Below the pieces are notes generated by a model that saw nothing but the letters and a program-made list of their open reading frames with translations, was not told where the DNA came from and searched no databases. Positions 16,727 through 48,554 of a DNA stretch of 64,000 bases are shown here, piece by piece. Location: contig CANQBB010000002.1 in assembly GCA_947588905.1 (NCBI GenBank), positions 170 to 64,169 on the forward strand, written 5' to 3'. The translations under genes and the position numbers were made by a program. Each line of letters opens with the position of its first letter. Position 1 is the first letter of the stretch. Source of the DNA: an uncultured Clostridia bacterium. Its GTDB lineage: Bacteria > Bacillota > Clostridia > TANB77 > UBA1234.

Positions 16727-16926
16727 AATATTACCTCCCTAATTTATCATCTGTACATCTATTAAAATATTTTATATTAAAAGTTATTTAAATTCAACAT
16801 TTTTAAAATATTTTTAAAAAAAATTTGTATTATCTTTACAAATAAAGTCAAGTTAGATAAAATTATAGTATAAATACACAAGAAAATTAAGATACAGCAG
16901 ATTAAATTTTGAGGGGAGTAATTTTT

Positions 16927-18267
16927 ATGAGAATAATGATGCTTTCTTGGGAATATCCACCAAGGATTGTAGGTGGTATTGCTAGGGTTGTACATGATTT
17001 ATCACATAACTTTGCTAAACAAGGACATGAAGTTCATGTAATAACTTATCAAGAAGGAGACACAAAAGAATTTGAAAAAGATGGAGATGTTTTTGTACAT
17101 AGAGTTTCAAATTATCCAATAAATGCAAACAATTTAATTGATTGGGTAATGCAACTTAATTTTTGTATGTTAGAGAAAGCATCGGCAGTTATAAAAGAGT
17201 ATGGAAAATTTGATGTAGTGCATGCTCATGATTGGTTAGTTGCTTATGCGGCTAGAGCAATAAAGAAATCGTATAAATTACCATTAGTTGCAACAATTCA
17301 TGCAACTGAAAGTGGAAGAAATAAAGGAATACATAATAAATCTCAAGGATATGTAAATGATGTTGAATGGTTACTTACATACGAAGCTAGTCATGTTATT
17401 TGTAATAGCTATTATATGAAAAATGAAATAAAAAATTTATTTGGTAAACCTGAAGATGATATTTTTGTTGTTCCAAATGGAATAAATGTAAATAAATTTG
17501 ATAATGAAGAAAGAGATTGGGAGTTTAGAAGAAATTATGCAGCTGATTATGAAAAAATAATTTTCTTTGCTGGTAGAATAGTAAATGAAAAAGGAATACA
17601 AATTTTATTACAAGCTGCTCCAAAAATTCTGGCTAATTATCCAAACGTTAAATTTGTAATAGCAGGAAGAGGACCATGCTTAGATGAATTAAAAGGTTTA
17701 GCAGATTATCTTGGAATATCAAATAAAGTTTACTTTACAGGTTATTTAAATGATGCACAAATTACTAAGATGTATAAAGCAATAGATATTGCAACATTTC
17801 CAAGCTTATATGAACCATTTGGAATAGTTGCATTAGAAGGAATGCTTGCAGGTGCAGCTACAGTTGTTTCTGATGCTGGTGGATTAAATGAAATTGTTTC
17901 TCATGGAATTGATGGAATGAAATCATATGCTGGAAATGCTAATTCACTTGCAGATTCTATACTTGAAGTTTTATTTAATGAGAATTTATGTAAGAGTATG
18001 GCGAGAAACGCAAGAGAAAAAGTTATTAGAGAATTTAATTGGGGTGTAATTGGAAAGAAAACGTTGGATGTTTATAAACTAGCAATTAAAGCTAATAAAG
18101 CTACTTTGAAATCAGATGTAAGCATAGAAAAATTAGCAGAAAAAGAAAGCTATGGAACTGCTACATGTGTTGATGGAAAAGATACAACAATTACCACAGA
18201 CACTACAGATACAGAAATAAAAGCATTGCATAATCCACTTAAGAAAAAAGTTTTAGGAAGAGCATAA
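16927..18267 (+). CDS. glycosyltransferase family 4 (glycogen/alpha-glucan synthase-like, GlgA-type)
   Basis: MRIMMLSWEYPPRIVGGIARVVHDL is the GT4 N-terminal motif. The C-terminal half is GT-B-like. Start taken at the ATG after the ribosome-binding site GAGGGGAG. Confidence 0.8.
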   Translation: MRIMMLSWEYPPRIVGGIARVVHDLSHNFAKQGHEVHVITYQEGDTKEFEKDGDVFVHRVSNYPINANNLIDWVMQLNFCMLEKASAVIKEYGKFDVVHAHDWLVAYAARAIKKSYKLPLVATIHATESGRNKGIHNKSQGYVNDVEWLLTYEASHVICNSYYMKNEIKNLFGKPEDDIFVVPNGINVNKFDNEERDWEFRRNYAADYEKIIFFAGRIVNEKGIQILLQAAPKILANYPNVKFVIAGRGPCLDELKGLADYLGISNKVYFTGYLNDAQITKMYKAIDIATFPSLYEPFGIVALEGMLAGAATVVSDAGGLNEIVSHGIDGMKSYAGNANSLADSILEVLFNENLCKSMARNAREKVIREFNWGVIGKKTLDVYKLAIKANKATLKSDVSIEKLAEKESYGTATCVDGKDTTITTDTTDTEIKALHNPLKKKVLGRA

Positions 18268-18549: not shown

Positions 18550-20025
18550 ATGGAGAATTACAATATATATCAAAATATTGCAACAAGAACAAATGGAGAT
18601 ATATACATAGGTGTTGTTGGTCCGGTTAGAACAGGTAAATCAACTTTTATAAAACATTTTATGGAATTAGCAGTTCTTCCCAATATAAAAGATGATGTTA
18701 AAAGACAGAGGGCTCAAGATGAATTACCTCAAAGCTCTAATGGAAGAACTATAATGACAACTGAACCAAAGTTTATTCCGAACGAAGCTATACAAATTAC
18801 TGTAGATAATGTTAAGTTTAATACAAGAATGATTGATTGTGTAGGATATTTAATCAATAATAGCATTGGACATATGGAAGGAGATGTACCGAGAATGGTA
18901 AGAACTCCTTGGTCTGATGAGGAAATTCCATTTGAAGAAGCAGCTGAAATTGGAACTAAAAAAGTTATTGATGAACATTCTACTATAGGAATTTTAGTAA
19001 CAACAGATGGAAGTGTAACTGGAATTGACAGAAGTGATTATTTAAATGCAGAAGATAGAGTTGTAAAAGAATTGAAAAAGCAAAATAAACCATTTATAAT
19101 TATTTTAAACACAATAAATCCAGATGATGAAAATGCTAAAAAGATGTGTATTGATTTAGAAAATACATATGATGCTCCTGTAGTTCCAATGAATTGTGAA
19201 CATTTAAGTAATGATAATATAAATGATATTTTAGAAAAAATTTTATATGAATTTCCAATCAATGAAATTGATATGAACTTTCCTAAATGGATTGATTCTT
19301 TGGATAATTCACATTGGCTAAAAAAGAATATTTTAGATATAATAAAAGACAATTTATCAGATATGAAAAATTTAAGACAAATAAAATTACTAATGAATAC
19401 ACTTGGTGATGGAAACATTATTAAAAAAATGGATGCCGATGAAATCTTTTTAAACAATGGAGTTGTTAATGTAAAAGTTGAAATTGATAAAAATTTATTT
19501 TATAAAGTATTAACGGAAATGTCTGGAATAGATGTAAAAGAAGAGGGGGACTTATTTAGTATTGTTACATCAATGGCTAAAAGTAAAAAAGCATATGACA
19601 AGATTGAGCAAGCATTAAATGAAGTAAAAAGAAAGGGCTATGGAATAGTTAATCCTGATATTGATGATTTAACTTTGGAAGAACCAGAAATAGTAAAACA
19701 AGGTTCAAAGTTTGGAGTTAAATTAAGAGCAAAGGCACCTAGTCTACATATAATAAGAGCTGAAATTGAAACTGAAATTTCTCCTATAGTAGGAAGTGAA
19801 AAGCAATCAGAAGAGTTGGTGAACTATTTACTAAAGGAATTTGAAGATGATCCAAAACAGATTTGGCAATCTAATATATTTGGAAAGTCATTACATGAAC
19901 TTGTAAATGAAGGACTTCAGAATAAGTTATATAAAATGCCAGAGGATGCTCAAATGAAATTCCAAGAGACATTAGAAAAAATTATTAACGAAGGTAGTGG
20001 TGGCTTAATTTGTATTATACTTTAA
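18550..20025 (+). CDS. spoIVA: stage IV sporulation protein A (spore coat morphogenetic ATPase)
   Basis: 491 aa. The N-terminus YIGVVGPVRTGKSTFIKHFMELAVLPNI carries the SpoIVA Walker A. Full-length similarity to SpoIVA. Confidence 0.93.
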   Translation: MENYNIYQNIATRTNGDIYIGVVGPVRTGKSTFIKHFMELAVLPNIKDDVKRQRAQDELPQSSNGRTIMTTEPKFIPNEAIQITVDNVKFNTRMIDCVGYLINNSIGHMEGDVPRMVRTPWSDEEIPFEEAAEIGTKKVIDEHSTIGILVTTDGSVTGIDRSDYLNAEDRVVKELKKQNKPFIIILNTINPDDENAKKMCIDLENTYDAPVVPMNCEHLSNDNINDILEKILYEFPINEIDMNFPKWIDSLDNSHWLKKNILDIIKDNLSDMKNLRQIKLLMNTLGDGNIIKKMDADEIFLNNGVVNVKVEIDKNLFYKVLTEMSGIDVKEEGDLFSIVTSMAKSKKAYDKIEQALNEVKRKGYGIVNPDIDDLTLEEPEIVKQGSKFGVKLRAKAPSLHIIRAEIETEISPIVGSEKQSEELVNYLLKEFEDDPKQIWQSNIFGKSLHELVNEGLQNKLYKMPEDAQMKFQETLEKIINEGSGGLICIIL

Positions 20026-25928: not shown

Positions 25929-27209
25929 ATGAATTATATAAATGTAATTGGCGGAGGTTTAGCTGGTTCAGAGGCTGCTTATCAAATTGCTAAAAGAGGA
26001 ATAAAAGTTAAACTTTATGAAATGAAACCAGTTAAATTTTCACCAGCACATTCAAATGAAGACTTGGCAGAAATTGTATGCAGTAATTCTTTTAAATCTA
26101 ATAGTATTACAAATGCATGTGGATTATTAAAAGAAGAACTTAGAAGATTGGATTCTCTACTAATTAAATGTGCAGATATGACAAAAGTTCCAGCGGGACA
26201 AGCTTTAGCTGTAGATAGAGAAAAGTTTTCTAAACTTGTCACAAAATATATAGAAGAAAATGAAAATATAGAAATCATAAAAGAAGAAGTTACTGAAATA
26301 CCATCTGGTATAACAATTATTGCAACTGGACCTTTAACTTCTGAAAAATTATCATTAAAAATACAAGAGTTAATGGGTACTGAAAAATTATTTTTTTATG
26401 ATGCTGCAGCACCAATTGTTACTAAAGAATCAATAGATATGAATAATGCTTTTACTGCAGACAGATATGGAAAAGGCGATAGCGATTATATAAATTGCCC
26501 AATGACTAAAGAAGAATATGAAATCTTTTATAATGAACTAATAAATGCAGAAGTTGTGGAAAAGCATAGTTTTGAAAATGGAGGACTATTTGAAGGATGT
26601 ATGCCTATTGAAGAAATGGCAAGACGAGGAGAAAAAACACTTACTTATGGACCTTTAAAACCAGTTGGTTTTGACAAAAAATATTATGCTGTAGTTCAGT
26701 TAAGGCAAGATAATATTGAAGGCACATTATATAATATGGTAGGTTTTCAAACAAATTTAAAATTTGGAGAACAAAAAAGAGTATTTAGTCTAATACCTGC
26801 TTTAAAAAATGCAGAATTTGTTAAATATGGTGTTATGCATAGAAACACATATATAAACTCAACTAAATTATTAGATGAAACATATAATTTAAAAAGTAAT
26901 ACTAATATTTATTTTGCTGGACAAATTTCTTGAGTAGAGGGATATGTTGAATCTATTGCATCTGGATTGGTTGCGGGTTTAAACAGTGTTAATAAATTGT
27001 TAGGAAAAGATAAAATAATATTTAGTGAAGAAACAATTATAGGAGCTTTAGCAAAATATATTTCTACAGAAAATAAAAATTTTCAACCTATGAATGCTAA
27101 TTTTGGAATATTAAATATTGAAGAAAAATTTAAAGACAAAAAGAAAAAATATGAAGTTCTAGCAGAAAGAAGTTTAAAACATTTTGAAAATAGGAGTGAA
27201 GAAAATTGA
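25929..27209 (+). pseudogene. trmFO: methylenetetrahydrofolate--tRNA-(uracil54-C5)-methyltransferase TrmFO, interrupted by an in-frame TGA at 26931-26933
   Basis: The ORF tracks 25929..26933 (334 aa, [24 protein letters not shown]...) and 26967..27209 lie in the same frame. Translation reads ...[31 protein letters not shown], where intact TrmFO has G/T-G at the stop position. A single GGA-to-TGA change explains it. Confidence 0.8.
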
Positions 27210-28447
27210 AAAAAATAATTTGTTTATTTGTTATACTTTTATCATTAACATCTTCTGCTTATGCGGCAGATGTTAATGTACAAATCAATGGTAAAATAAT
27301 AGATTTTACAGATAGTCAAGGAAATAAAGTTAATGCACAAATTATAAATGAAAGAACAATGGTTCCATTTAGAAAAATATTTAATGAATTAGGAGTTGTT
27401 GACGAAAACATTACTTATACTTCTAGCGAAGAACCAATAACTGCTAAAAAAGATAATGTTGAAATAATAATTCAAATTGGTAGCACAACTGCAAAAAAAA
27501 TTGAAAATGGTGTAGAAAAAACAATTACTCTTGATTCGGCACCAGTTATTATTGAAGGAAGAACTTTGGTACCACTTAGATTTATTGCTGAAAGCCTTGG
27601 TAATACAGTTGGCTGGGATTCGGCAAATGCAACAGCAGTAATTATTGATTATAATTATTTCATAAATAATTTAAAAAATAAATCTGTAAGCTTATATAAT
27701 TTCTTAACAAAAGATGCAGCAGAGACTAATTTTTCAATCACAAGAAATTATTTTGATGATGAAGATTCAACTAAAAATGATTCTGCAATAGTTAGTGGCC
27801 AAATTATAGAAAGTAGATCTGGAAATAATGTAACTCAAAATGTTACGATGAATTTTGATGGAACAAATGAAGTTATAAAGGAAATTATTTCTGAAGGCTG
27901 GGCTAATATACAGTTTGAAAATACATATACAGAAAAATCAATTGTTTCAAAAGCTTTAAATGATGGATTAAAGAAAATATATGGTATTGAGCAACTTACA
28001 TTTGATTATAGTGAATTAGAATGTAGTGGTAGCTATGATGCATCTTTATATGAACTATTTAAAACACTTTGTAATGTTGAAGAAAGCTCTATAAACATTT
28101 CAACTTTTGACACATTAAACAATGAGTTTAATAATTTATTAAAATTATTTAATGGAACTGATACAAAATTATATACAGGAAATAAAAATAGCAATGATAT
28201 AGAATTAAATTATTTTGATTTTACTAAGTTTGATAATATCATATGGGATGATTCAGTTAGTAGAGTATACTCTTTTATAAATAGTCAAATTTTTAAATAT
28301 GATATAACACTTGAAGAATTAAGTTATGATTATCCGACAATCAATATTGAAATAAATTTAAATAATTCTGAATTAAATATTGATTTAAAACTATCAAACG
28401 AATATAATGAAAGAATAGAGTACATAGTAAAAATAAATAAAATTTAA
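27206..28447 (+). CDS. secreted protein with copper-amine-oxidase N-terminal-like (stalk) domain (413 aa)
   Basis: Signal peptide, then a segment ([32 protein letters not shown]...[27 protein letters not shown]) typical of the Cu_amine_oxidN1 domain. Start overlaps the trmFO stop (ATGA). Confidence 0.6.
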
Positions 28448-28461
28448 GAGGAGAGTGTAGT

Positions 28462-29844
28462 ATGAAAAAGTTTTTAGTTTTATTATTATCATTTATAATG
28501 ATATTTTCAACTTTATGCGTTTCAAGTGCAGTAGAAATTGATGATGATTTGCTATCAGGATATGTTCAAGGAGATATTATGCTTCTTGATGGACTTATAT
28601 CACCAAATCCAAATTCTACAATAAGAGTTAAATTAGATGATAAATATATTGATTTCACAGATGCAAACGGAAATGTTGTTGAACCTCAAATTATAAATGA
28701 CAGAACAATGGTACCATTTAGAAAAATATTTAATGAGTTAGGAGTTACTGACGAAAATATTACTTATACTTCTAGTGAAGAACCAATAATAGCAAGTGGA
28801 GACGATGCAGTAATTAAACTTCAAATTGGTAGCACATCAGCATCAAAAACAGTTAATGGAGTTACTACAAATATTACATTAGATTCTGCTCCTGTTATTG
28901 TTGATGGAAGAACTTTAGTACCAGTTAGATTTATTGCTGAAAGCCTTGAGAAAAAAGTTGGCTGGGATGCATATAACAGAACAGTTATAATTATTGATGA
29001 AGAAAAACTTCAATCAGAATTAGAAACAGCTGCTCCAAAATACTTTGAATTATTGAAGTTACAAACTGTAAAACCTAATACTTATGATGTTAGCATGAAT
29101 TTAAACGGTACTCTAAAATATACAGACTCAAGTGATAAATCAAATAATACAAATATTACTCTTGATGGAAAAATAGATATGGTAAAAGCTGCAGATGCTG
29201 TTTCTATGGATATAAACGCAAAACTATCAGGAAAAGGAGTAATGTTTGATGCTGTAAAATCAGCTGGATTACAAAACATTGATTTATCAATTATTATAAC
29301 AAAAGATGCTATGTATTTAAAGAGTTCATTAGTAGAAGAAACAAATGGAAAATGGGTAATGGAAAAAGATGATTCTTTAAATGAATTATTTGAAACACTA
29401 AATCAAAAAAATGATGCAGAACTTCTAAATATTGATGAAGACAGTTTGACTATATATACTTATGACTCATATAAGATGGTAATTGATATGTTCAAAGAGC
29501 TTCTTGGAGATGATAAGTTAACTATTACTGAAGGAAAAACAACAAAGTTTGAATGGAATATGAATCTTGATGATTTATTAGCATTTATGAAGAAGAGTGA
29601 TAGCAGTGTTGATACAACAACTGTAACTGATGTAATCAAAGCTTTTGATGTTTCTCTAGATGGAACAATAAAAGATGGACTTAATGATGAAGCAAAAGTT
29701 GGAATGAACTTAAAAGCAGAGCAAGATACTGAATCAATAGAATTAGAAATTAAAGTAGATGCTAAATATAATAGTTATAATAAAACATATACTATTAAAG
29801 TTCCTACAGGAAATGATGTAATGGATGTTTCAACAATATATTAA
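28462..29844 (+). CDS. paralogous secreted protein with copper-amine-oxidase N-terminal-like domain (460 aa)
   Basis: Signal peptide. The domain segment is about 70 % identical to the upstream paralogue. C-terminal regions differ. Confidence 0.6.
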   Translation: MKKFLVLLLSFIMIFSTLCVSSAVEIDDDLLSGYVQGDIMLLDGLISPNPNSTIRVKLDDKYIDFTDANGNVVEPQIINDRTMVPFRKIFNELGVTDENITYTSSEEPIIASGDDAVIKLQIGSTSASKTVNGVTTNITLDSAPVIVDGRTLVPVRFIAESLEKKVGWDAYNRTVIIIDEEKLQSELETAAPKYFELLKLQTVKPNTYDVSMNLNGTLKYTDSSDKSNNTNITLDGKIDMVKAADAVSMDINAKLSGKGVMFDAVKSAGLQNIDLSIIITKDAMYLKSSLVEETNGKWVMEKDDSLNELFETLNQKNDAELLNIDEDSLTIYTYDSYKMVIDMFKELLGDDKLTITEGKTTKFEWNMNLDDLLAFMKKSDSSVDTTTVTDVIKAFDVSLDGTIKDGLNDEAKVGMNLKAEQDTESIELEIKVDAKYNSYNKTYTIKVPTGNDVMDVSTIY

Positions 29845-29916: not shown

Positions 29917-30936
29917 CTATTGTACTTTTTCTGCAAAGGTATTATTTACAATTATACTATAAGGTGCAGTTTTTTCTAATTCTCCAGCTTCAGTCATAAC
30001 TTTTTGTAATCTCATGAATGCGTCTTCTGACATTTTTGGAGTATCGCTCCATGCGTCAATTTTTTTATATCTTTCTATTACTGTGGTAAGTACATTTATA
30101 TCTGTTTCTGGAAATGAACTCATAACTGCTTCGGCAATCTCTGATGCAGAATGTTCTTTAACCCAGGTTTGACCTTTAGAAAGTGCATTAACAAATTTTT
30201 GAATTATTTCTGGATTATTTTCAATATAACTTTTTCTTGCAAAATAAGCAGTAAATGGGATTTCTTCGGTAGCTTCTCCAACAGATGCAACAATATGACC
30301 TTTGCCTTCTAATTCAAGAGTTGTAGCAGTTGGCTCAAATACTGTGACATAGTCTCCTGTACCAGAAACAAATGCAGTTGTCATAGCATCAAAACTAATG
30401 CTATTATCAAAATTTAAATCTGTATCAGTATTTATTCCATGTTGTCTAAGTACATATTGTAAAGTCATATAAGGAACTCCACCTTTTCTACCAGGAAGAA
30501 TATGAGACCCTTTTAGATTTTCCCAACTAAAATCTCCTGACTCTCTGGCAACTAAAAAAGAACCATCTCTTTTTGTAACTTGAGCAAATACTTCTGCATA
30601 GTCACTACTTCCCTCATTATAAATATAGATAGATGCTTCTGGACCTGCAAAACCTATTTGAACATCATTAGATAGTACAGCAGTCATAACTTTATCTGCT
30701 CCAGCACTATTTATTAGTTCAATATCTAATCCTTCATCTTTAAAAAATCCAAGATTTATAGCAACGTATTGAGGTGCATAAAATACAGAGTGTGTTACTT
30801 CACTTACAGTAATCTTTTGTAATTCATCTCCAGATGTTTCGAGAGTGGTAATGTTAGCATTTTTGCTAATTACTGCAATAACAATTACTATAATAATAAC
30901 TAATATTGCAATCAACGTATAAATTAGTCTTTTCAT
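29917..30936 (-). CDS. ABC-transporter substrate-binding protein, NMT1/THI5-like (SsuA/TauA family), orphan
   Basis: 339 aa with an N-terminal transmembrane/signal anchor and a periplasmic-binding-protein type 2 fold. No adjacent permease or ATPase genes. Confidence 0.65.
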   Translation of the reverse strand: MKRLIYTLIAILVIIIVIVIAVISKNANITTLETSGDELQKITVSEVTHSVFYAPQYVAINLGFFKDEGLDIELINSAGADKVMTAVLSNDVQIGFAGPEASIYIYNEGSSDYAEVFAQVTKRDGSFLVARESGDFSWENLKGSHILPGRKGGVPYMTLQYVLRQHGINTDTDLNFDNSISFDAMTTAFVSGTGDYVTVFEPTATTLELEGKGHIVASVGEATEEIPFTAYFARKSYIENNPEIIQKFVNALSKGQTWVKEHSASEIAEAVMSSFPETDINVLTTVIERYKKIDAWSDTPKMSEDAFMRLQKVMTEAGELEKTAPYSIIVNNTFAEKVQ

Positions 30937-31056
30937 TTAAACCCTCCTATAATTAAATTCTATTTAATTCTTATGCTGAAACATTAAGTTTTGTGCATAA
31001 ATATTTATATTTTAAATCGAATAATATAAGAGAAGACTGCATAATAATCAAAAGAG

Positions 31057-32247
31057 GTGATTGTCTTGAAAAAAGTAATTTATATATTGATTTTGATATT
31101 TTTTATAATTGGAAATGTTTATGCATTTTATGAAGAAGCAAGTAGTGAAGAAGACTATATTGTTGAAACCACAGGAAGTTTGGATGTTCCAAACTTGAAT
31201 GCGAAATCAGCTATACTTTACGATATGACGTATGATAGGATATTATATGAAAAAAATTCAAAACAAAGAAGAGCTAATGCCTCAACTACAAAGATGATAA
31301 CAGCTTTAGTTGCTTATGAAAAAGGTAATTTAAACGATATAGTTACTATTAGTCAAAAGGTAGGCAATACAGGAGGCTCAACAATAAATTTAAGAACTGG
31401 AGATAAAATATCTTTAGACAACCTTATAAAAGGGTTATTAGTTCACTCGGGAAATGATGCAGCAGTTGCAATTGCAGAACATATATCGGGAAGTATAGAA
31501 GAATTTGCAATATTGATGAATGAAAAAGCTGAAGAAATAGGTGCTAAAGACAGCCATTTTGTAAATCCACATGGCTTAGATGCAGAAAATCACTATTCTA
31601 CAGCTTTTGATTTAATGTTAATAGCGAAGGAAGTGCTAAATACACCATATTTAGCGAATATAGTTTCAAAAAGAACTATAGAAATAGAAATAAATGGCAA
31701 CACTAGAACTATCGGAACAACAAATGAAGTTTTAAGTGCATATCCAGGAGCAAATGGAGTAAAAACAGGATTTACTGGTGATGCTGGAAGATGTATAGTT
31801 ACCTCAGCCAAAAAAGACAATAGACAAATTATAAGTATTGTATTGGGTTGTGATACAAAAAAGAATAGAACTATTGATTCCGTAGGCCTTTTAAATTATG
31901 GTTTTAACACGTTTAAAAGTGTTAATTTGGGAGATTATATTAGAAAAACTATTTGTATAAATGTAGATAAAAGCGAAGGTGTTTTATATACCTTAAAGAG
32001 AGATGCAGATATATATTATCCGTTGAAAGAGGAGGAAATTAAAGAAATTAGAGTCAATTATAATGTGGTTAATAATTTGGTTGCACCATTAAATAAAGGC
32101 TATAAAGTTGCTAGTGCTAGTATTTTTCTAAATAATAGTAAGATTTGTGAAGTCGAATATCTTTTACCTCAAAAAATAGAAAGGAAAGATTGGAAAGAGT
32201 TTTTTAAAGAATTACTTTTTAATAATATTGAAAATATGCATATTTAG
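31057..32247 (+). CDS. D-alanyl-D-alanine carboxypeptidase (low-molecular-weight PBP, PBP5/DacB-like)
   Basis: 396 aa with a signal peptide, SxxK (ASTTKM), SGN (HSGND) and KTG motifs, and a C-terminal PBP5-type domain. Confidence 0.85.
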   Translation: MIVLKKVIYILILIFFIIGNVYAFYEEASSEEDYIVETTGSLDVPNLNAKSAILYDMTYDRILYEKNSKQRRANASTTKMITALVAYEKGNLNDIVTISQKVGNTGGSTINLRTGDKISLDNLIKGLLVHSGNDAAVAIAEHISGSIEEFAILMNEKAEEIGAKDSHFVNPHGLDAENHYSTAFDLMLIAKEVLNTPYLANIVSKRTIEIEINGNTRTIGTTNEVLSAYPGANGVKTGFTGDAGRCIVTSAKKDNRQIISIVLGCDTKKNRTIDSVGLLNYGFNTFKSVNLGDYIRKTICINVDKSEGVLYTLKRDADIYYPLKEEEIKEIRVNYNVVNNLVAPLNKGYKVASASIFLNNSKICEVEYLLPQKIERKDWKEFFKELLFNNIENMHI

Positions 32248-32357
32248 TAATAAATATTTGAAAAAATAGATAAAAACATAAAATAAGGTTGAAAAAAATT
32301 GAAAAATATAGTAATATATGTATGGAGATTTATGCAATTAAATCGGAGGGAAAAGTA

Positions 32358-32813
32358 ATGAAAAAAGTAATATTAGCAATAATAATTAGTATGTTTCTTG
32401 TATGTAGCACTTTGTCTTGTGTTTCAAATGCTGAAACAAGTAGTGCACATAGTGATGCTAACATTGAGCAAGGAACTATAACTGAAGATAATACAGAAGA
32501 AAAGGTAACACAATCTTCTGAAAAAATATTAGATAACCTATCACAAAAAGAGAAGAAAATAGCTGAATATACAGATAAGTATAATAATGAAACATATGCT
32601 TATACTGCATATTACCTAGATATGGCACAATTATATAGCATTCCAATTTTTATTATAATAATGACAATTGGTGCATTTAATTACTATATTATAGGAGAAA
32701 AGAAATTAGACAAGAAGGAACAAGGTTTTGGACTTATAATGGCTTCTTTGAGTGGACTAGTTTTATTTCAAGTTTTACCATTGATATTTGCATTGCTAGT
32801 TGCAGGAAAATAG
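32358..32813 (+). CDS. hypothetical exported/membrane protein (about 151 aa)
   Basis: Signal peptide (MKKVILAIIISMFLVCSTLSCVSNA), an acidic segment, then two C-terminal transmembrane helices. Start taken at the ATG preceded by GGAGGGAAAAGTAATG. Confidence 0.4.
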   Translation: MKKVILAIIISMFLVCSTLSCVSNAETSSAHSDANIEQGTITEDNTEEKVTQSSEKILDNLSQKEKKIAEYTDKYNNETYAYTAYYLDMAQLYSIPIFIIIMTIGAFNYYIIGEKKLDKKEQGFGLIMASLSGLVLFQVLPLIFALLVAGK

Positions 32814-32901
32814 ATAAAAAGAAATTTTAAAATTAAAAATTTTTATTTGTTATATTTGTTTAAAGTAAAAAATGCTAAATTTAGCAGGAAGGTGATTATA
32901 G

Positions 32902-35373
32902 ATGAAGGTACTATTTGCAATAGGAAGTGAACAAACTTCTAAAAGAGTTGCCGAAAAATATTATGAAAAATTTGGAGAAGAATTAGAATATAAAAATGTT
33001 TTTTATTTTCAAGCTCTCTTGAATGAAGTTAAAGCTGATAAAACTTATGACAGAATTGTTATAAGCGAAGAATTAGAAGAATTTGTAATAAAAAATAATG
33101 TAGAAGCTTTTGATAGACTTATATTTAATAAAATTGATAGTATAACAGATGAAATTGAGGATTCAGAAATCATTGTTATATGCTCTGATAGAAGAAGCAA
33201 AAATCAAGATAGATTTGTTGAAAGACTTTTTAGTATTGGTGTATATAACATATTGATTGGTGATGAAAGAAATGTTGAATCACTATGTAACTGCATAAAT
33301 AAACCACTAAATAAAAAAGAAGCAAAAAGACATTTAAACATTAATCCTGTAGTTAGTAATAGCGAACTTTCTACTAGAGATGATGAAGTAGAAGAAGTTC
33401 AAATGCTAAATATATTAAAATATTATGATGGAATTAAAGGAAAAGTAGATGAATATGTTCCTGCATTTGACAGAATAGCTGAACAATATAGCCAAGTACA
33501 ATTAAAAGTAATTGCAAGTCAACTTCCTGCTGATGTAAAAAGAGAATTACTTAAATCTGAAAGATATATATTCTTATCTGATGTTTTAATGCCTAGAGGA
33601 AGTGAAACACCTCAAAAGAATAATGTAATAAAACAACAGGTTAGTAAACCTTCTAAGATGGGATTATTTGGATTCTTGAAAAAGAATTCAAATTCGAATT
33701 CAAATCCAATTAGTGAAAATACTAGAAGAACTGATAGACCAGGTGCAATTGATAGAGAACCAACTAACATTGAACAAGAAAGAAGAAATAGTGCTGAAAT
33801 GGATGCCATTGCTTTACAGGAAGCTAAAGATAGAGAACAAGCCGAATTGAGAGCAAAAGCAGAACGTGAGGCTATGGAAAGAGAACAAGCTGAATTAAGG
33901 GCTAAAGCAGAACAAGAAGCTAGAGACAGAGAACAAGCTGAATTAAAAGCAAAAGCTGAGCAAGAAGCTAGAGACAGAGAACAAGCTGAATTAAAGGCAA
34001 AAGCAGAACAAGAAGCTAGAGATAGAGAACAAGCTGAACTAAGAGCAAAGGCCGAACAAGAGGCTAGGGATAGAGAGCAAGCTGAAAAGACTAGAGTAGA
34101 ACAAGAAACTATGGCTAGACAACAAGCTGAATTGAAAGCTAGAGCAGAGCAAGAAACTAGAGAAAGAGAACAAGCTGAACTAAGAGCTAGAGCAGAACAA
34201 GAAGCTAGGGACAGAGAGCAAGCTGAGCTAAGAGCTAGAGCAGAACAAGAAGCTAGAGATAGACAACAGGCTGAATTGAAAGCTAGAGCAGAACAAGAAG
34301 CTAGAGACAGAGAACAAGCTGAGTTAAGGGCTAGAGCAGAACAGGAAGCTATGGCTAGACAGCAAGCAGAATTAAAATCTAAAGAAGAACAAGGAGTTCA
34401 AAGAAAAATGGAACAAGATTCATTAGAAGAAGAAAGAAGAAAATTAGAGCAAGAAAAACTTGCATTAGAAGAGGAAAGAAAAAAATTAAGAGAACAAACA
34501 GAACAGCTTAGCAAATCTGCAGGAATGAGTTCGACTCCTAGACCTACAATTGATACTAATTATGATAGCAAAAAAATGGATTATAAAAAGATGGTAATTT
34601 TTGTCGGTGCAAATAAAAGTGGAACAACATTTATGGTTAATGCTATTTCACATCATTTGGCTGATAATAGAGTTGGTGTCGGTGTATTAGATATGACAAG
34701 AGATAGAAGTCTTTATTATATATATAATCAAGATAGCAAAGAATTAAGAGATGTTGCACTTGGTTGTATGCAAAAATTATCTGAAGGTGTTGATTCATAT
34801 ATTCAAGGTAAGAGAAACTTAAAAATATATACATCAGTACCAGGCACTAATGTTGATAATAGAAGAGGCTTTAGAAATAAATCTATTATAGATACTTTGA
34901 CAAATAATAATAATCTTGTTATAGTAGATGCTGATTTCTCAGCTCCATTAGAATATTTTGAAAAAGCTGATGAAATATATATAGTACAAGACTTAGATAT
35001 TATGAAGATGCAAGAAACAACATTATTTTTACGTGAGCTAAAAAATAGAAGTGTAAATATGAATAAAATTAGAATTATAATAAATAAGTATGTTAAATGT
35101 CAATTAACACCTAAGAAAATAATAGAAGGTTTATCATATTATAATGATCCACAAATGTCATTTGTAGATGAAATATTAGATAATAAAACAGCTTATTATT
35201 TAGTTCCAATTAGTATTGAAAATTATACTAATTATATTGAAAGTATGTATAAAAATAATATAGATTATAAAAAATATACACCAGATTTCTTAAATGCTAT
35301 TAAAGATATTGCTTCTGTTGTTTATAAAAGAGGAGGAGCAACTCAAACAAAGAGAAGAGGAATCTTTGGATAG
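32902..35373 (+). CDS. three-part protein (823 aa): receiver-like N-domain, 11 tandem 16-aa repeats (DREQAELRAKAEQEAR), degenerate ParA/MinD/CpaE-like P-loop C-domain
   Basis: Ribosome-binding site GGAAGGTGATTATAGATG. The N-domain (MKVLFAIGSEQTSKRVAEKY...IVICSD) is flavodoxin/REC-like. The centre is a perfect-period charged repeat. The C-domain (MVIFVGANKSGTTFMVNAISHHLADNRVGVGVLDMT...LVIVDADFSAP) aligns to the deviant Walker A and Walker B of the MinD/ParA/CpaE family with substitutions. Confidence 0.75.
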   Translation: MKVLFAIGSEQTSKRVAEKYYEKFGEELEYKNVFYFQALLNEVKADKTYDRIVISEELEEFVIKNNVEAFDRLIFNKIDSITDEIEDSEIIVICSDRRSKNQDRFVERLFSIGVYNILIGDERNVESLCNCINKPLNKKEAKRHLNINPVVSNSELSTRDDEVEEVQMLNILKYYDGIKGKVDEYVPAFDRIAEQYSQVQLKVIASQLPADVKRELLKSERYIFLSDVLMPRGSETPQKNNVIKQQVSKPSKMGLFGFLKKNSNSNSNPISENTRRTDRPGAIDREPTNIEQERRNSAEMDAIALQEAKDREQAELRAKAEREAMEREQAELRAKAEQEARDREQAELKAKAEQEARDREQAELKAKAEQEARDREQAELRAKAEQEARDREQAEKTRVEQETMARQQAELKARAEQETREREQAELRARAEQEARDREQAELRARAEQEARDRQQAELKARAEQEARDREQAELRARAEQEAMARQQAELKSKEEQGVQRKMEQDSLEEERRKLEQEKLALEEERKKLREQTEQLSKSAGMSSTPRPTIDTNYDSKKMDYKKMVIFVGANKSGTTFMVNAISHHLADNRVGVGVLDMTRDRSLYYIYNQDSKELRDVALGCMQKLSEGVDSYIQGKRNLKIYTSVPGTNVDNRRGFRNKSIIDTLTNNNNLVIVDADFSAPLEYFEKADEIYIVQDLDIMKMQETTLFLRELKNRSVNMNKIRIIINKYVKCQLTPKKIIEGLSYYNDPQMSFVDEILDNKTAYYLVPISIENYTNYIESMYKNNIDYKKYTPDFLNAIKDIASVVYKRGGATQTKRRGIFG
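33826..34380 (+). repeat. intragenic tandem repeat, 48 bp repeated about 11 times (encodes [D/M]REQAEL[R/K]AKAEQEA[R/M])
   Basis: Direct reading shows gatagagaacaagctgaattaagagc(a/t)a(a/g)agcagaacaagaagctaga units with synonymous or conservative variation. Confidence 0.85.
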
Positions 35374-35379
35374 GAGGAA

Positions 35380-35640
35380 ATGAAAATGGATAATGAAAAT
35401 ACAATCTTTTTTAAGGTGGAAAAAGAGAAAAAGGCAAATTCAAAACAAATATTAAGACAAGTTTATGAAGCACTTGTTGAAAAAGGATATAATCCTGTTA
35501 ATCAAATTGTTGGATATATCTTATCTGGAGATCCAACATATATCACAAGTTACAAAGATTCTAGGACTTTAATAAGACAATTAGAAAGAGATGAATTATT
35601 AGAAGATTTAGTTAAAGAATATATTGGAGTTAATGAGTAA
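35380..35640 (+). CDS. ireB: IreB-family regulatory phosphoprotein (UPF0297)
   Basis: 86 aa. The motif ...[36 protein letters not shown] is characteristic of the UPF0297/IreB family. Located immediately upstream of ruvX, as in the conserved Firmicute cluster. Confidence 0.7.
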
Positions 35641-36056
35641 TGAAAATTCTTGGATTAGATTATGGAGATGTAAGAACAGGTGTAGCAATTTCTGATGAAT
35701 TAGGAATGATTGCACATGGACTTGAAACAATAGAACATAATGGTAGTGATAAGAAATTACTTGAGAGAATAAAAGAAATTATAAAACAAAATAATATTGA
35801 AAAGATTGTTATTGGTTATCCATTAAATATGAATGCTACTAAAGGACCAAGAGCTGAAAAGACAGATGCATTTATTAAAAAACTAAAATTAGCAACTAAT
35901 ATGGAAGTAATAAAAGTTGATGAAAGATTAACAACTGTTGCATCTCATAGAACTATGACGGAACTAAACGTTGGCAAAGACAAAAAGAAAAAAATTGTAG
36001 ATACTATATCTGCTGAATATATTTTACAGATGTATCTAGATAAAAAAGTTAATTAG
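35640..36056 (+). CDS. ruvX: Holliday-junction resolvase-like protein RuvX (YqgF)
   Basis: 138 aa. [19 protein letters not shown] is the RNase-H-like YqgF N-terminus. Start overlaps the ireB stop. Confidence 0.9.
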   Translation: MKILGLDYGDVRTGVAISDELGMIAHGLETIEHNGSDKKLLERIKEIIKQNNIEKIVIGYPLNMNATKGPRAEKTDAFIKKLKLATNMEVIKVDERLTTVASHRTMTELNVGKDKKKKIVDTISAEYILQMYLDKKVN

Positions 36057-36069
36057 AAGGGAGAAAAAA

Positions 36070-36375
36070 ATGGACGAAAACAAAGATTTAAATGAAGTTG
36101 AAGAATTTGATGATTTAGACAATATAATAACTCTAACAGATGAAGAAGGTAATGAAATTGAATTTGAATATCTTGATGCAGTTGAAATGGATGGTAAAGA
36201 ATATATAGTTTTATTACCAGTTGAAGAACAAGAAAAAGGAGAAGTTGTTATCTTTAGAGTTGAAGGCGAAGAAGATAATGAAACTTATGTTGGACTTGAA
36301 GATGAGGAAGAGGCAGAAAAAGTTTTTAATTTGTTTAAAGAAAAAGCTAGAGACGATTTTGATTTTGCAGACTAA
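36070..36375 (+). CDS. DUF1292-family small acidic protein
   Basis: 101 aa, very acidic. ITLTDEEGNEIEFEYLDAVEMDGKEYIVLLP is the DUF1292 core. It occupies the conserved position after ruvX. Confidence 0.75.
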   Translation: MDENKDLNEVEEFDDLDNIITLTDEEGNEIEFEYLDAVEMDGKEYIVLLPVEEQEKGEVVIFRVEGEEDNETYVGLEDEEEAEKVFNLFKEKARDDFDFAD

Positions 36376-36476
36376 TTAAAAAAATATATGCCATTTTAAA
36401 TGAGGCTTAGAAATACAATTTGTATTTTGTACTTCATTTAAAATGGCATTATTAAATTTTAATAAAAGAGGTAATT

Positions 36477-37703
36477 ATGGAAAAGTTAATTGATAAAGTA
36501 GAAAAAGAAATAAAAAATCAATTTAATATAGAAGAAGAAATAGAATATTATAATTCTAAAAAAGTTTTAGAAGCTTTTAAAAAATATAATATCAGTGAAG
36601 CACATTTAAAGGGAACAACTGGATATGGATATGGCGACTTAGGAAGAGATACAATAGAACAAGTCTATTCAGATATTTTTAAAGCAGAAGATGCTTTAGT
36701 TAGAAATCAATTTATATCTGGGACTCATACTATATCTTGTTCATTATTTGGAATATTGAGACCCAATGATATACTTTTAAGTATCAATGGAAAACCATAT
36801 GATACTTTAGATGAAGTAATTGGAATTAGAGAAAATCCTAGTTCATTAAAAGCATTTGGAGTTAAATATGAACAGATAGAATTAAAAGATAATAAGTTTG
36901 ATATAGAACAAATCAAAGAACGTGCTAAAAAACATGATATTAAGCTAATAATAATTCAACGTTCAAGAGGATATTCTTATAGAAATGCTTTTTTAATTGA
37001 TGAGATTGAAGAAGTAATAAGAAATATAAGAGAAGTTAACAAAGATGTATATATAATGGTAGATAATTGTTATGGAGAATTTACTGAAATAAAAGAACCT
37101 ATAGAAGTAGGAGCTGATATTGCAGTTGGTTCTCTTATAAAAAATATTGGTGGTTCAATAGCACAAACAGGTGGATATGTTGTAGGGAAAAAAGAATTGA
37201 TTGATTTGATTAGCGATAGATATTCTGCTCCAGGTTTAGGAAAAGAAGGAGGAGCTTCTTTTGAACATAATAGAAAAATAATGCAAGGATTATTTATGGC
37301 TCCGCACATAGTTTGTGAAGCAAAGAAAATAGGAATATTTGCTTCTAAATTATTAGAAGAATTAGGTTTTGAAACTGAACCTAAATATAATGCAAAACGT
37401 TCAGATATAGTTCAGATGATTAAATTTGGTAATGCAGAAAAGCTTATTAAGTTTTGCCAAGCAATTCAGTCTTTTTCTCCGATTGATTCACATGTTAAAC
37501 CAATGCCTTGGGATATGCCTGGATATGAAAATCAAATTATTATGGCAGCAGGTGCTTTCACTTCGGGTTCTTCAATAGAGTTAAGTTGCGATGGACCATT
37601 AAGAGAGCCATATGTTGCATATTTGCAAGGTGGAATAACATATGCTTATGGAAAAATTGCTGTTACAGAAGCAGTGCGTACAATTATGGATTCTAAGTTT
37701 TAA
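36477..37703 (+). CDS. methionine gamma-lyase-family protein (aluminium-resistance / YnbB family, PLP-dependent)
   Basis: 408 aa. Family-typical segments GTTGYGYGDLGRDTIEQVYSDIFKAEDALVR and IIQRSRGYSYRNAFLIDEIEEVI. Ribosome-binding site AGAGGTAATTATG. Confidence 0.8.
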   Translation: MEKLIDKVEKEIKNQFNIEEEIEYYNSKKVLEAFKKYNISEAHLKGTTGYGYGDLGRDTIEQVYSDIFKAEDALVRNQFISGTHTISCSLFGILRPNDILLSINGKPYDTLDEVIGIRENPSSLKAFGVKYEQIELKDNKFDIEQIKERAKKHDIKLIIIQRSRGYSYRNAFLIDEIEEVIRNIREVNKDVYIMVDNCYGEFTEIKEPIEVGADIAVGSLIKNIGGSIAQTGGYVVGKKELIDLISDRYSAPGLGKEGGASFEHNRKIMQGLFMAPHIVCEAKKIGIFASKLLEELGFETEPKYNAKRSDIVQMIKFGNAEKLIKFCQAIQSFSPIDSHVKPMPWDMPGYENQIIMAAGAFTSGSSIELSCDGPLREPYVAYLQGGITYAYGKIAVTEAVRTIMDSKF

Positions 37704-39798: not shown

Positions 39799-40602
39799 AT
39801 GCAAAAGGAGACCACAATTACAATAGCTGACGATAATGTAGATTTTGCACAAGTTTTAAACAAATTTTTAAGTAGTCAAGAAGGTATTAAAGTTATAGGA
39901 ATGGCACATAATGGTGAAGATGCAATTGATATGATTGAGAAATTAAATCCAGACATAGCATTATTAGATGTTATAATGCCACAATTAGATGGCTTAGGAG
40001 TATTAGAAAAATTAGATTTAATTAACAAACCAAGAAAGACAAAGTTTATGATGCTTTCTGCAGTTGGACAAGATGCGATTACTCAAAGAACTCTAGCTTT
40101 AGGAGCACAATATTATATGATTAAACCATTTGATTTAGATACATTGATTCAACGTATTAGAGAAATAAACGAAGGCTTAATTGAAAATATACCAACTCAA
40201 GAAAACATTATTAAATCTGCACATATTTCTATAATGAAAAAAGAAGATGAATCAATAGAAAGCATGGTAACTAAAATAATGCATGAAGTTGGAGTACCTG
40301 CTCACATAAAAGGATATCAATATATAAGAGAAGCAATTATTTTAGCTGTAAATGATATTGAGACAATAAATTCTATTACAAAACTTTTATATCCAACACT
40401 TGCTAAAAAATTTAAAACAACTCCATCAAGGGTAGAAAGAGCTATACGTCATGCAATAGAAGTTGCTTGGTCTAGAGGAGAAATGAATGTAAATAATGAA
40501 ATGTTCGGAAATACAATTTCTGCAACTAAAGGCAAACCAACTAATAGTGAGTTTATTGCAATGATTGCAGATAAATTAAGACTTGAAACTAAATCAGCAT
40601 AA
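39799..40602 (+). CDS. spo0A: sporulation master regulator Spo0A (response regulator)
   Basis: 267 aa. REC domain ([12 protein letters not shown]...[14 protein letters not shown]). The Spo0A-specific C-terminus ([18 protein letters not shown]...[31 protein letters not shown]) is unmistakable. Confidence 0.95.
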
Positions 40603-46482: not shown

Positions 46483-48554
46483 TAGAAAAATTAGCTAGAT
46501 TCATCGTACAAAAGAGAAATAAAATCGGAATTATATTCATTATCTTAATCTTAATTAGTTTAATACTAATGCCAATGGTAAATATAAATTATGATTTATC
46601 AGAATATGTGCCAGATACGGAAAAATCAAAGCAAGGAATGAATATAGTAAAAGATGAATTTGCTATGCAAGGTTTTGCAAGAGTAATGATTAACAATGTT
46701 ACTTTAGTTCAAGCTAAAGAGTATAAAGACAAGATTCAAGCTGTTGATGGTGTAGACATGGTTTTATGGCTTGACGATAGTGTGGATATTTATAGACCAG
46801 AAGAATTCATTTCAGAAGATTTATTAAAAGATTATTATAAAGATGGTTCTGCTATTTTTGAAATAATGTTTGATGAAGATGAATATTCATTAAAAACAGA
46901 TAAAGCGATTGAAGATATTCAAAAAATAATTCCTGAAGATAGTAATATGATTGGTTCTGCGATTGATACAAAATCTTCAAGAGAAAAAGTTAAGACAGAA
47001 ATAGGTAGAATAATGATTATACTTATTCCAGTTGTAATTATTATCTTGATTTTAACAACTAATTCATATTTATCACCACTATTGTTTATAGTGATTATAG
47101 GAACTTCAATACTTCTTAACATGGGAACAAATATAATTTTTAAGCATGTATCTTTTCTTACATATAGTATAGTTGCTGCTCTGCAACTTGCAGTTTCCAT
47201 GGACTATTCGGTTTTTGTTTTACATGAATTTGAAGATGAAGATAAAAAAGATATAGAAGAAGCAATGGTTAGAACTATAGTAAAATCTTGTTCATCAATT
47301 TGTTCTAGTGCTCTTACAACAGTTGCGGGATTTGTTGCATTAGTGTTTATGGGATTTACTATTGGAAAAGACATGGGATTAGTTTTTGCAAAAGGAATTA
47401 TATTTAGTTTAATTAGTGTAATATTCTTTATGCCATGTTTAATATTAAAGTTTTATCCTATTGTAGAAAAATTTAATCATAAATCATTTTTACCAGATTT
47501 TAATAAATTTGCAAAATATACAAGAAAGATTTCATATTTGTTAATAGCAATAGTTATTTTAATCGTAGTGCCTTCATATGTTGCACAAAAGCAAAATGAA
47601 TTCTTATATGGAGCATCTTCTTTTGGAGGTGGCGAAGGTACAAAAGTATATGAAGATGAAAAACTTATTGTAGAAAAGTTTGGTAGAAGTAATCCAATAA
47701 TTATACTTGTGCCAGTAGGTGACTATGTGAATGAAAAAAATTTAGCAAATGAATTTGAAAATTTAGAATATGTGAAAAAAGTTCAGTCACTTGCAAATCT
47801 TGTTGGAGAAGGAATTCCAGATTCTTTTATTCCAATAGATAATTATCAAAAGTTTAAAACAGATAAATACTCAAGATTTGTCATATATGTAAAAACATCA
47901 TCAGAAAGTGATGCTGCTTTTGAAGCTGTAAATGAAATAGAAGAAATAACTCAAAAATATTATGGAAATAATTATGAAATAACAGGAACAATACCAGTTA
48001 CGATGGATATTAAAAATGTTGTAAACAAAGATTATAACATTGTAAATTGGATTTCAATTGGAATGGTAATGGTAATATTATTATTCACATTTAAATCTTT
48101 AATATTGCCAATATTACTTATAGTTGTAATTGAAGGTGGAATATTTATAAACATGGCTATACCATATTATACAGGTCAGAGCATGATGTTTTTGGGGTAT
48201 TTAATAGTTAGTTCAATAGAACTTGGAGCAACAATAGATTATGCAATTTTAATGACTAATAATTATTTAGAGTTTAGAAAAGACAATGATAAAAAAGAAG
48301 CATCAGATTTAGCTGTATCAAAAAGTGTACCATCTATAATTACATCTGGAGGAATATTAGTATCAGCTGCTTATTTAATAAAGTTTGGTTCAACAATGAG
48401 TGCTGTATCTGAAATGGGAGAACTTATTGGTAGAGGAACAATTTTAAGTATGTTTTTAGTTATATTTTTCTTACCACATGTGTTAGTTATATTTGATAAA
48501 TTGATAGAAAAAACAAAGTTTGAAAATTTTAAGAAGGGAAGTAAGGTTAAATGA
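46479..48554 (+). CDS. MMPL-family membrane transporter (RND-like)
   Basis: 691 aa. Two clusters of 5-6 transmembrane helices, each preceded by an extracytoplasmic domain. Start overlaps the TetR stop. Confidence 0.75.
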   Translation: MIEKLARFIVQKRNKIGIIFIILILISLILMPMVNINYDLSEYVPDTEKSKQGMNIVKDEFAMQGFARVMINNVTLVQAKEYKDKIQAVDGVDMVLWLDDSVDIYRPEEFISEDLLKDYYKDGSAIFEIMFDEDEYSLKTDKAIEDIQKIIPEDSNMIGSAIDTKSSREKVKTEIGRIMIILIPVVIIILILTTNSYLSPLLFIVIIGTSILLNMGTNIIFKHVSFLTYSIVAALQLAVSMDYSVFVLHEFEDEDKKDIEEAMVRTIVKSCSSICSSALTTVAGFVALVFMGFTIGKDMGLVFAKGIIFSLISVIFFMPCLILKFYPIVEKFNHKSFLPDFNKFAKYTRKISYLLIAIVILIVVPSYVAQKQNEFLYGASSFGGGEGTKVYEDEKLIVEKFGRSNPIIILVPVGDYVNEKNLANEFENLEYVKKVQSLANLVGEGIPDSFIPIDNYQKFKTDKYSRFVIYVKTSSESDAAFEAVNEIEEITQKYYGNNYEITGTIPVTMDIKNVVNKDYNIVNWISIGMVMVILLFTFKSLILPILLIVVIEGGIFINMAIPYYTGQSMMFLGYLIVSSIELGATIDYAILMTNNYLEFRKDNDKKEASDLAVSKSVPSIITSGGILVSAAYLIKFGSTMSAVSEMGELIGRGTILSMFLVIFFLPHVLVIFDKLIEKTKFENFKKGSKVK

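Follow-up and report, generated by a model that had tools for sequence, protein, structure and literature searches.

We analysed a 64,000-nt stretch of DNA from an uncultured Clostridia bacterium (contig CANQBB010000002.1, positions 170 to 64,169; hereafter the window) and focused on a gene that encodes an 823-aa protein directly upstream of ireB and ruvX. This protein joins a receiver-like domain with an attached helical bundle to a C-terminal MinD-like domain through a long charged repeat linker, and its MinD-like domain carries an almost invariant P-loop that lacks both Walker A lysines. Homologues with the same layout were found at the head of Tad-like pilus operons. The best-supported account of its origin is that a TadZ/CpaE-like organiser left a pilus operon and became fixed beside ireB-ruvX in one clade. 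We further propose, at slightly less than an even chance, that the 823-aa protein is a relocated, divergent descendant of a TadZ/CpaE-type organiser that acts as a membrane-docked, dimeric, non-hydrolysing scaffold.

Family and distribution

An earlier annotation made from the DNA letters (hereafter the first-pass annotation) had described a three-part protein with a REC-like domain, charged repeats and a degenerate ParA/MinD/CpaE-like ATPase. The open reading frame (ORF) and all three parts were borne out, and the MKVLFA N-terminus agrees with homologue N-termini. An NCBI record for an identical protein exists with no name attached. Pfam and NCBIfam, searched with the full-length protein and with its two ends separately, returned only noise, ten relatives looked up by cluster had no name, and literature searches found no paper on the family. 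The earlier view that such a protein had not been characterised agrees with the Pfam, NCBIfam and NCBI name look-ups. The 823-aa protein lies outside curated families and does not carry the Walker motif that defines ParA/MinD, nor the one that defines TadZ; its tie to these proteins is drawn because of fold, architecture and ancestry.

An exhaustive hidden Markov model search yielded 395 cluster representatives, 159 of them below 1e-30, with lengths of up to 1434 aa and the MinD-like domain at the C-terminus. Both the MKVLFA-type N-domain and the C-domain are kept in 85 of 146 inspected members, and the remainder are N-terminally cut, often at contig breaks. Most database copies stop short of the full protein, as N-terminal or C-terminal pieces on short contigs; the repetitive linker is probably where short-read assemblies break, which would lead annotation pipelines to under-represent the family. 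All 80 retrieved loci come from gut or rumen metagenome-assembled genomes that carry the labels Clostridia, Eubacteriales or Clostridium sp. CAG. No relative was found on viral contigs.

The C-domain has a MinD-like fold and a variant P-loop

The AlphaFold2 model of the C-domain (14 homologues; pLDDT confidence 78, predicted TM-score 0.81) was searched against the PDB with Foldseek. The results showed 234 matches at E ≤ 0.001, and the top 50 were all of the ParA/MinD/NifH class. The best was the ParA-family ATPase 3ea0 (E 8.7e-9, TM-score 0.67/0.75), and FlhG, MinD, FleN, BcsQ, McdA, HypB and NifH were also matched; TadZ (3fkq) stood outside the top 50. None of the Pfam ParA-type models (CbiA, AAA_31, ParA, MipZ) matched the 823-aa protein at E ≤ 1. 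Across 24 diverse family C-domains, CbiA gave a weak match in 18 (best E 7.7e-6) and MipZ a match in 7. A deeper family C-profile reached the BY-kinase CapB at 6.7e-4, and PDB sequence searches with the single C-domain or a shallow first profile gave only spurious repeat-protein matches. The proposed ParA/MinD-like C-domain is therefore upheld by the Foldseek fold, with weak sequence support at family level from the CbiA matches and from a bridging homologue, described below, that passes the CbiA model.

Like MinD, FlhG and FleN, the C-domain begins with a strand, P-loop and helix, has an Asp after strand 2 and carries a Walker B-like hhhhDxD. It differs from them in lacking KGGxxK[ST] and any Pfam match and in being fused through a long linker to a receiver-like domain; no MinC, MinE or flagellar genes were found near the gene.

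The motif GANKSGTT (aa 569-576), which the first-pass annotation had read as a deviant Walker A, is present, and both lysines of KGGxxK[ST] are gone. The family consensus F-V-G-[TA]-[STN]-K-[NS]-G-T-[ST]-F is almost invariant: in 148-149 sequences, G569, G574 and S/T576 were conserved at 100%, F577 at 99%, K572 at 94% and T575 at 90%. D597, after strand 2, is also 100% conserved, and N580 belongs to the C-domain residues conserved at 90-100%. An hhalign comparison of the C-profile with E. coli MinD covered a 36-column P-loop at 9% probability, which serves for residue pairing only and not as evidence of homology. It pairs GANKSGTT with MinD GKGGVGKT, and D597 with MinD D38; HMMER pairs the same loop with CapB APGAGKS. 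In this pairing, Thr replaces the Walker A lysine, Ala the signature lysine, and Asn and Lys two glycines, with the conserved K572 at loop position 4. McdA-type ParA ATPases, which were among the fold matches, give a precedent for a key lysine outside its usual Walker A place. The lysine displaced in McdA-type proteins is the signature lysine; in the 823-aa protein, Thr has taken the place of the catalytic Walker lysine as well.

According to a review of the ParA/MinD family, KGGxxK[S/T] is the family hallmark and is needed to bind and hydrolyse ATP, and some members hold the key lysines elsewhere in the sequence. TadZ and CpaE, like the 823-aa protein, have a Walker-like motif without the canonical second lysine (TadZ consensus K/RGGXGXS/T), and ATP binding by TadZ is reported to serve dimerisation. 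The family motif GxxKxGT[ST] differs from K/RGGxGx[ST] of TadZ in lacking the K/R-G-G start. Canonical ATP hydrolysis by the C-domain appears unlikely, because both Walker A lysines are replaced.

These residues bear on an alternative in which the protein is a nucleotide-dependent switch: K572 or another invariant Lys would contact the phosphate, and ATP would drive dimerisation and attachment to the membrane or a partner, in the way of TadZ or MinD, perhaps with slow hydrolysis. The 90-100% conservation of G569, K572, G574, T575, S/T576, F577, N580 and D597 is unexpected for a dead site, and the family members with lysines elsewhere, the ATP binding reported for TadZ and an Arg at the matching place in an intermediate group from Tad loci (GSDRRVGTT, below) all fit such a switch. 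Against it, loop position 4 pairs with MinD G13 in the hhalign comparison. Bulky residues at the neighbouring P-loop glycines block the sandwich dimer of ParA/MinD proteins. We consider the switch unlikely, though far from negligible, and continue to favour the non-hydrolysing scaffold.

The nearest outgroup heads Tad-like pilus operons

When plasmids were searched with tblastn, a weak match turned up on pMU3262 of Thermoanaerobacterium saccharolyticum. In the protein encoded there (WP_014759607.1, 494 aa), a receiver-like head ('LLSE') is followed by tandem repeats of the 11-aa unit KEKIVEKPVEV, then by a MinD-like domain and a tail that reads KKGFSLFRR. It aligned with the family C-profile at 98.2% hhalign probability (E 5.6e-14, 249 columns) and with the N-profile at E 9.5e-5, keeps a normal Walker A (SVGKT) and scores above the Pfam CbiA cut-off (37.8 vs 25.4 bits). 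Homologue searches with WP_014759607.1 returned mostly KEKIVEKPVE repeat matches (ParB-like, flap-endonuclease-like), which were disregarded.

The gene for WP_014759607.1 heads an operon that continues with CpaB/RcpC, a second MinD-like ATPase, a T2SSE (TadA/CpaF-type) ATPase, two TadB/C-sized proteins, a small pilin-sized gene and a TadE-like gene; the pMU3262 element also carries FtsK/SpoIIIE and relaxase-like genes. The same layout surrounds homologues in Caldanaerobacter subterraneus and in metagenomes. An intermediate group in Tad loci, which matches the family profile at 1e-29, already has a lysine-less GSDRRVGTT loop and shows the same CpaB - MinD-like - T2SSE order. The resemblance to CpaE/TadZ noted earlier gains weight from this outgroup, the nearest one, in which the three-part protein is the first gene of Tad-like operons.

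The homologues from pMU3262 and Caldanaerobacter share with the family the head (S/T-E at the acceptor site), the repeats, the MinD-like domain and a KKGF..F tail. They differ in their normal GK[ST], their passing of Pfam CbiA, their unrelated 11-aa repeats and their Tad-operon position, and are themselves uncharacterised. TadZ and CpaE proper (Eubacterium rectale TadZ, Caulobacter crescentus CpaE) likewise place an atypical N-terminal receiver before a ParA/MinD-fold domain. The membrane-binding peptide described at the C-terminus of CpaE is a putative feature of the 823-aa protein. TadZ and CpaE differ in lying in a tad locus, and the 823-aa protein has in addition a repeat linker of 320 aa, the helical bundle and a candidate leucine zipper. 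Of 24 family members compared with NCBIfam, two reached the CpaE-like model TIGR03815, at E 0.11; the 823-aa protein itself had no NCBIfam match.

As a separate observation, Tad-like operons were found on conjugative-type elements in pMU3262 (L081, 6302-13517) and in loci L082-L086. They are headed by one or two unnamed proteins of the receiver-like - repeat - MinD-like kind, and the elements also carry M23/SLT hydrolases and are typed as MPF_T.

The gene occupies a fixed position beside ireB and ruvX

The neighbours named in the first-pass annotation (a D,D-carboxypeptidase, ireB, ruvX and a DUF1292 gene) all matched Pfam models. The start of ireB lies 6 nt past the stop codon of the 823-aa gene, and no + strand terminator-like site was found within 30900-36600. 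Downstream synteny in the related loci was strong, with ireB present in 80/80, ruvX in 79/80 and the DUF1292 gene in 71/80.

No pilus or flagellar genes were detected among the Pfam-scanned ORFs of the window. A tblastn search for CpaB, TadA, TadB, TadC, Flp and TadE, which covered the window and the surroundings of the family gene (within 8 kb) in 80 species, 1.2 Mb in all, likewise found none. The earlier statement that the gene lies in neither a pilus nor a flagellar locus therefore held over this range. The accompanying suggestion of a role in division, sporulation or cell-wall synthesis had the gene neighbourhood as its sole basis and drew no further support.

This distribution also bears on a second alternative, that the protein is a genuine TadZ serving, in trans, a Tad/Flp pilus machine whose genes lie elsewhere in the genome. 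Its architecture parallels TadZ/CpaE and its nearest outgroup homologues all head Tad-like operons; the lack of any Tad component within the searched range, the different, fixed neighbourhood kept across the clade and the departure of the Walker-like motif from the TadZ consensus speak against it. We regard a trans-acting TadZ as improbable and prefer the account in which the organiser left its pilus operon.

Two sigma-70-like matches were noted in the C-domain coding region: one at 34897-34925 (+), 11/12 with a TG extension and ~450 nt upstream of ireB, and one at 35103-35074 (-), 12/12. They could be chance matches in AT-rich DNA or an internal ireB promoter; the promoter scan is uninformative in such DNA (46 sites vs 30 expected).

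In one related locus (L053, 8886-9947), the family gene and ireB are separated by a gene for a membrane-anchored protein with a GGDEF domain, which hints at a cyclic di-GMP link that is absent from the window. About 1.2 kb of extra spacing before ireB was seen in many loci (e.g. L030, L031, L035, L037-L038, L040-L041, L043-L044 and L046), with GGDEF confirmed in L053 only.

The N-domain resembles a receiver at the fold level

The N-domain was modelled by AlphaFold2 with pLDDT 89.6 and strands at residues 2-6, 29-32, 51-55, 89-93 and 116-118. Its Foldseek matches were weak (3e-4 to 1e-2; TM-score to target 0.55-0.69) and mostly receivers, including RcsB (3.4e-4), the REC domains of ComE and Spo0A, FrzS and the CpaE N-domains 4dn6/4n0p. 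An invariant Glu56 stands at the C-terminal end of strand 3 ('VISE'), the place of the phospho-Asp in receivers, and no Lys follows strand 5. CheY has 'VISD57' at the same place, a pairing made by eye. PF00072 (Response_reg) matched 0 of 25 N-domains, hhalign comparisons of the N-profile with CheY and with the Spo0A encoded in the window gave nothing, and the N-domain profile had no match among PDB sequences. The REC-like label given earlier is thus retained for the fold and dropped for the sequence, and the modelled N-domain is best called a pseudo-receiver at the fold level only.

The attached bundle consists of five predicted helices (165-177, 182-195, 198-207, 210-216 and 220-229; pLDDT >90 in AlphaFold2). 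It is strongly conserved ('IAxQYxxxQLxxIxxxLP'), with F189, Q195, Y196, Q200, I204, L208 and Y222 invariant. It has no known relatives; the bundle alone was not fold-searched.

The linker is a variable, charged repeat

Tandem Repeats Finder reported an array at 33816-34393 with a period of 48 nt (12.1 copies, 81% matches, 1% indels) and a higher-order period of 285 nt (x1.9). The array had been described as a perfectly periodic, eleven-copy coiled-coil ruler, and this part of the first-pass annotation had to be revised in each respect. It has about 11-12 units that are 81% alike, and its phase slips once, at the degenerate unit 6, which lacks a residue; the Leu spacing runs 16, 16, 16, 16, then 31, then 16 again. 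The array looks like a block of about six units that has been duplicated.

The repeats are rich in E (25%), A (20%), R (16%), Q (14%) and K (8%), with a net charge of about -1 per unit, and opposite-charge i,i+4 pairs begin at about one third of the residues. There is about one hydrophobic residue per 16, roughly one Leu per unit, and the 16-residue period rotates this Leu by 160-206 degrees per unit. A canonical coiled coil was rejected because such a period yields no hydrophobic seam. Judged from composition and spacing, the array is most likely a single long ER/K-type alpha-helix, which would span ~29 nm if fully helical. Compared by sequence alone, it resembles ER/K single alpha-helix spacers and TolA domain II-type helices in being E/R/K/Q/A-rich with i,i+4 pairs, and a weak, sub-threshold TolA match spans the linker. 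It differs from ER/K spacers in that unit length and copy number vary among orthologues, even between otherwise identical alleles.

Across the family, linkers are 52 to 865 aa long, with a median of 346. Repeat arrays in the window subclade are particular to each orthologue, with units of 14-33 aa. P0144 and P0289 are 100% identical elsewhere and differ in the array by one unit (16 aa), and P0147 and P0290, also 100% identical elsewhere, differ by two units (32 aa), with assembly collapse as a caveat for such copy-number differences. A strongly charged helical block like that of the window protein occurs in only ~9 of 85 full-length linkers; RGRP-type AT-hook motifs, scored by motif alone, occur in 55/85 and acidic LPGx repeats in 27/85. 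A fixed-length ruler was rejected on the length range and the copy-number variation between otherwise identical alleles, and the AT-hook and acidic linkers weaken it further. The variation in linker and copy number therefore suggests a spacer selected for its general character and not for a fixed length.

Long acidic tandem repeats (DDDILPGFED or DDDLLDLDDDEE) were seen in the linkers of P0019, P0170, P0195, P0204, P0229 and P0247, where they adjoin RGRP AT-hook motifs. By eye, the DDDILPGFED-type repeats resemble the acidic D-D-D-[IL]-P-F tip of SSB proteins.

Short motifs suggest possible membrane docking and dimerisation

Just past the N-domain lies a Lys-flanked hydrophobic motif, SKMGLFGFLKKN, with subclade counterparts at the same place (RGLFGILK, KRGGLFGVLR, KKKGGLFGGFKK, KKKGLFGFRK and KKGILGFLK). 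In sequence it is close to the C-terminal tail motif, and with a low helical hydrophobic moment (0.11) it does not mark an amphipathic helix. Before the C-domain, L507, L514, L521, L528 and L535 form a leucine-heptad segment, a candidate dimerising zipper, and the EERRKLEQEKLALEEEKRKLREQ zipper block recurs in P0002, P0004, P0009, P0144, P0146 and P0147. The short basic-hydrophobic C-terminus recalls the membrane-targeting sequence of MinD. A K/R-K/R-G-[LIF]-F-[GKR] ending recurs in the window subclade; in other subclades the proteins finish with FSxxMNNTLNQMKKKY or KGFGLFRKK. The tail is modelled with pLDDT <50 and has a hydrophobic moment of 0.25, similar to the 0.27 computed for the E. coli MinD tail. 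Together, motif, zipper and tail suggest possible membrane docking and constitutive dimerisation; the hydrophobic-moment values are unimpressive.

The linkers and tails also bear on a third alternative, a nucleoid-to-membrane tether that would contact AT-rich DNA through the linker and the membrane through the tail and would thereby hold the chromosome in place or keep it out during division or sporulation, in the manner of RacA or Noc. The AT-hooks in most full-length linkers, a host G+C of 28%, the conserved basic-hydrophobic tails and the spore-forming Clostridia host, whose window encodes SpoIVA and a Spo0A-like ORF (the latter judged by eye from its translation), agree with such a tether. 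The linkers of the window protein and its subclade lack AT-hooks, the repeat carries its net negative charge, and no DNA-binding domain was detected. A tether would have only a small chance of being correct for this protein, and the membrane-docked scaffold is preferred.

A weakly pilin-like membrane protein is encoded upstream

The gene directly upstream encodes a small membrane protein with a signal peptide or N-terminal transmembrane segment, a variable exposed segment and a C-terminal two-helix hairpin. The ORF list placed its start at TTG 32289, and homologues favour an internal start near 32355. In 68/74 related loci, the family gene is immediately preceded by a counterpart ORF that has two or more hydrophobic segments, and the alignment shows conserved QKYSxP, G and LPLxYA motifs. 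The layout is VirB2/TrbC-like. Pfam T4SS_pilin matched 7/21 orthologues below threshold (best E 4.6e-4; cut-off 26.6 bits), one orthologue gave a weak, sub-threshold TrbC match, and the protein had no PDB sequence match. This VirB2/TrbC-like protein stands with no other secretion-system gene nearby.

The weakly T4SS-pilin-like neighbour, the loss of the ATP-site lysines and the outgroup relatives on conjugative-type elements (FtsK/SpoIIIE, relaxase-like gene, MPF_T typing) could also be read as traces of a decaying, functionless remnant of a mobile-element Tad/conjugation module, which is hardly credible given a long intact ORF, many invariant columns and end domains 40-70% identical across >100 species at one fixed chromosomal position.

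Discussion

In the model that we favour, the C-domain of the relocated TadZ/CpaE-type organiser would no longer be a hydrolysing ATPase, since both lysines of its deviant Walker A are gone. It would instead serve as a stable dimerising and membrane-docking module, aided by the upstream leucine zipper and the basic-hydrophobic tail. The pseudo-receiver and helical bundle would form the partner-binding end, and the protein probably works with the small membrane protein encoded directly upstream. Between the two ends, the linker would act as a fast-evolving spacer, in this protein possibly a long charged single helix of ~29-35 nm. Co-expression with ireB-ruvX is probable, and a link to envelope or cell-cycle organisation is our best guess.

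Several observations weigh against this model. The near-invariant loop, including K572, argues that the site binds something, so the term non-catalytic scaffold may be wrong in detail. The AT-hooks in most family linkers point to DNA contact, which a scaffold does not explain. The receiver assignment has weak Foldseek E-values, with other flavodoxin-like folds interleaved among the matches, and the tail and internal motif combine modest or low helical hydrophobic moments with low model confidence. The association with ireB is one of neighbourhood only, and all hosts found are uncultured.

A broader scenario, which we regard as doubtful, is that the clade turned a mobile-element TadZ-like protein into a new type of chromosomal organiser, in which a MinD-fold module, its phosphate-binding lysine shifted inside the P-loop (GxxKxGT[ST]), would be joined by a hypervariable linker (helical, acidic or with AT-hooks) to the pseudo-receiver and, together with the pilin-like protein and the IreB signalling operon, would couple nucleoid or envelope machinery to the membrane.

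ParA/MinD-type proteins are the main known bacterial means of placing large structures, and the KGGxxK[ST] ATP site is generally considered necessary for the way they work. A widespread family with a nearly invariant lysine-shifted loop offers a natural test of whether this site serves binding, dimerisation or nothing. The origin favoured here would give a documented case of a pilus-operon organiser that left its operon and settled by the housekeeping genes ireB-ruvX in an abundant uncultured gut clade, and the linker illustrates cleanly how a spacer can evolve while the two domains that it joins stay conserved.

Features and other genes of the window

Table 1. Coordinates of the 823-aa gene, its parts and the genes discussed with it (positions in the window).
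Feature	Position	Strand	Basis or description
Whole gene	32902..35373	+	823 aa; receiver-like domain, helical bundle, charged repeat helix, MinD-like domain, basic-hydrophobic tail
Pseudo-receiver	32902..33351	+	aa 1-150; CheY-like (beta/alpha)5; AlphaFold2 and Foldseek, fold level
Five-helix bundle	33379..33597	+	aa 160-232; attached to the receiver-like domain
Lys-flanked hydrophobic motif	33652..33687	+	aa 251-262; SKMGLFGFLKKN; just past the N-domain
Repeat array	33823..34398	+	aa 308-499; 12 charged units of 16 aa, consensus ARDREQAELRAKAEQE
Leucine-heptad segment	34414..34515	+	L507 to L535; candidate zipper before the C-domain
MinD/ParA-fold domain	34576..35337	+	aa 559-812; AlphaFold2 and Foldseek
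Variant P-loop	34606..34632	+	GANKSGTTF; GANKSGTT is aa 569-576
Basic-hydrophobic tail	35338..35370	+	ATQTKRRGIFG; candidate membrane-targeting peptide
Small membrane protein (upstream partner gene, putative)	32355..32813	+	ORF list, orthologue alignment
ireB, ruvX, DUF1292 gene	35380..36375	+	Pfam; IreB 35380..35640, RuvX 35640..36056, DUF1292 36070..36375
D,D-carboxypeptidase	31057..32247		Pfam Peptidase_S11
SpoIVA	18550..20025		
Spo0A-like ORF	39799..40602		Judged by eye from translation

Further genes of the window were noted in passing. A 2260-aa ORF with a MucBP domain at 7749-14531 (+) is probably a large surface adhesin, and it interrupts a glycogen-metabolism set (4332-6935, 14605-16185 and 16909-18267) that comprises a phosphorylase, a GH57 branching enzyme and a glycogen-synthase-like glycosyltransferase. 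Two tandem secreted paralogues (27206-28447 and 28462-29844, +) share an N-terminal segment of ~130 aa, which includes IDFTD..GN.V.., and have unrelated C-terminal parts. A 686-aa ORF with no Pfam match (48551-50611, +) directly follows genes for an MMPL-family transporter and a TetR regulator.

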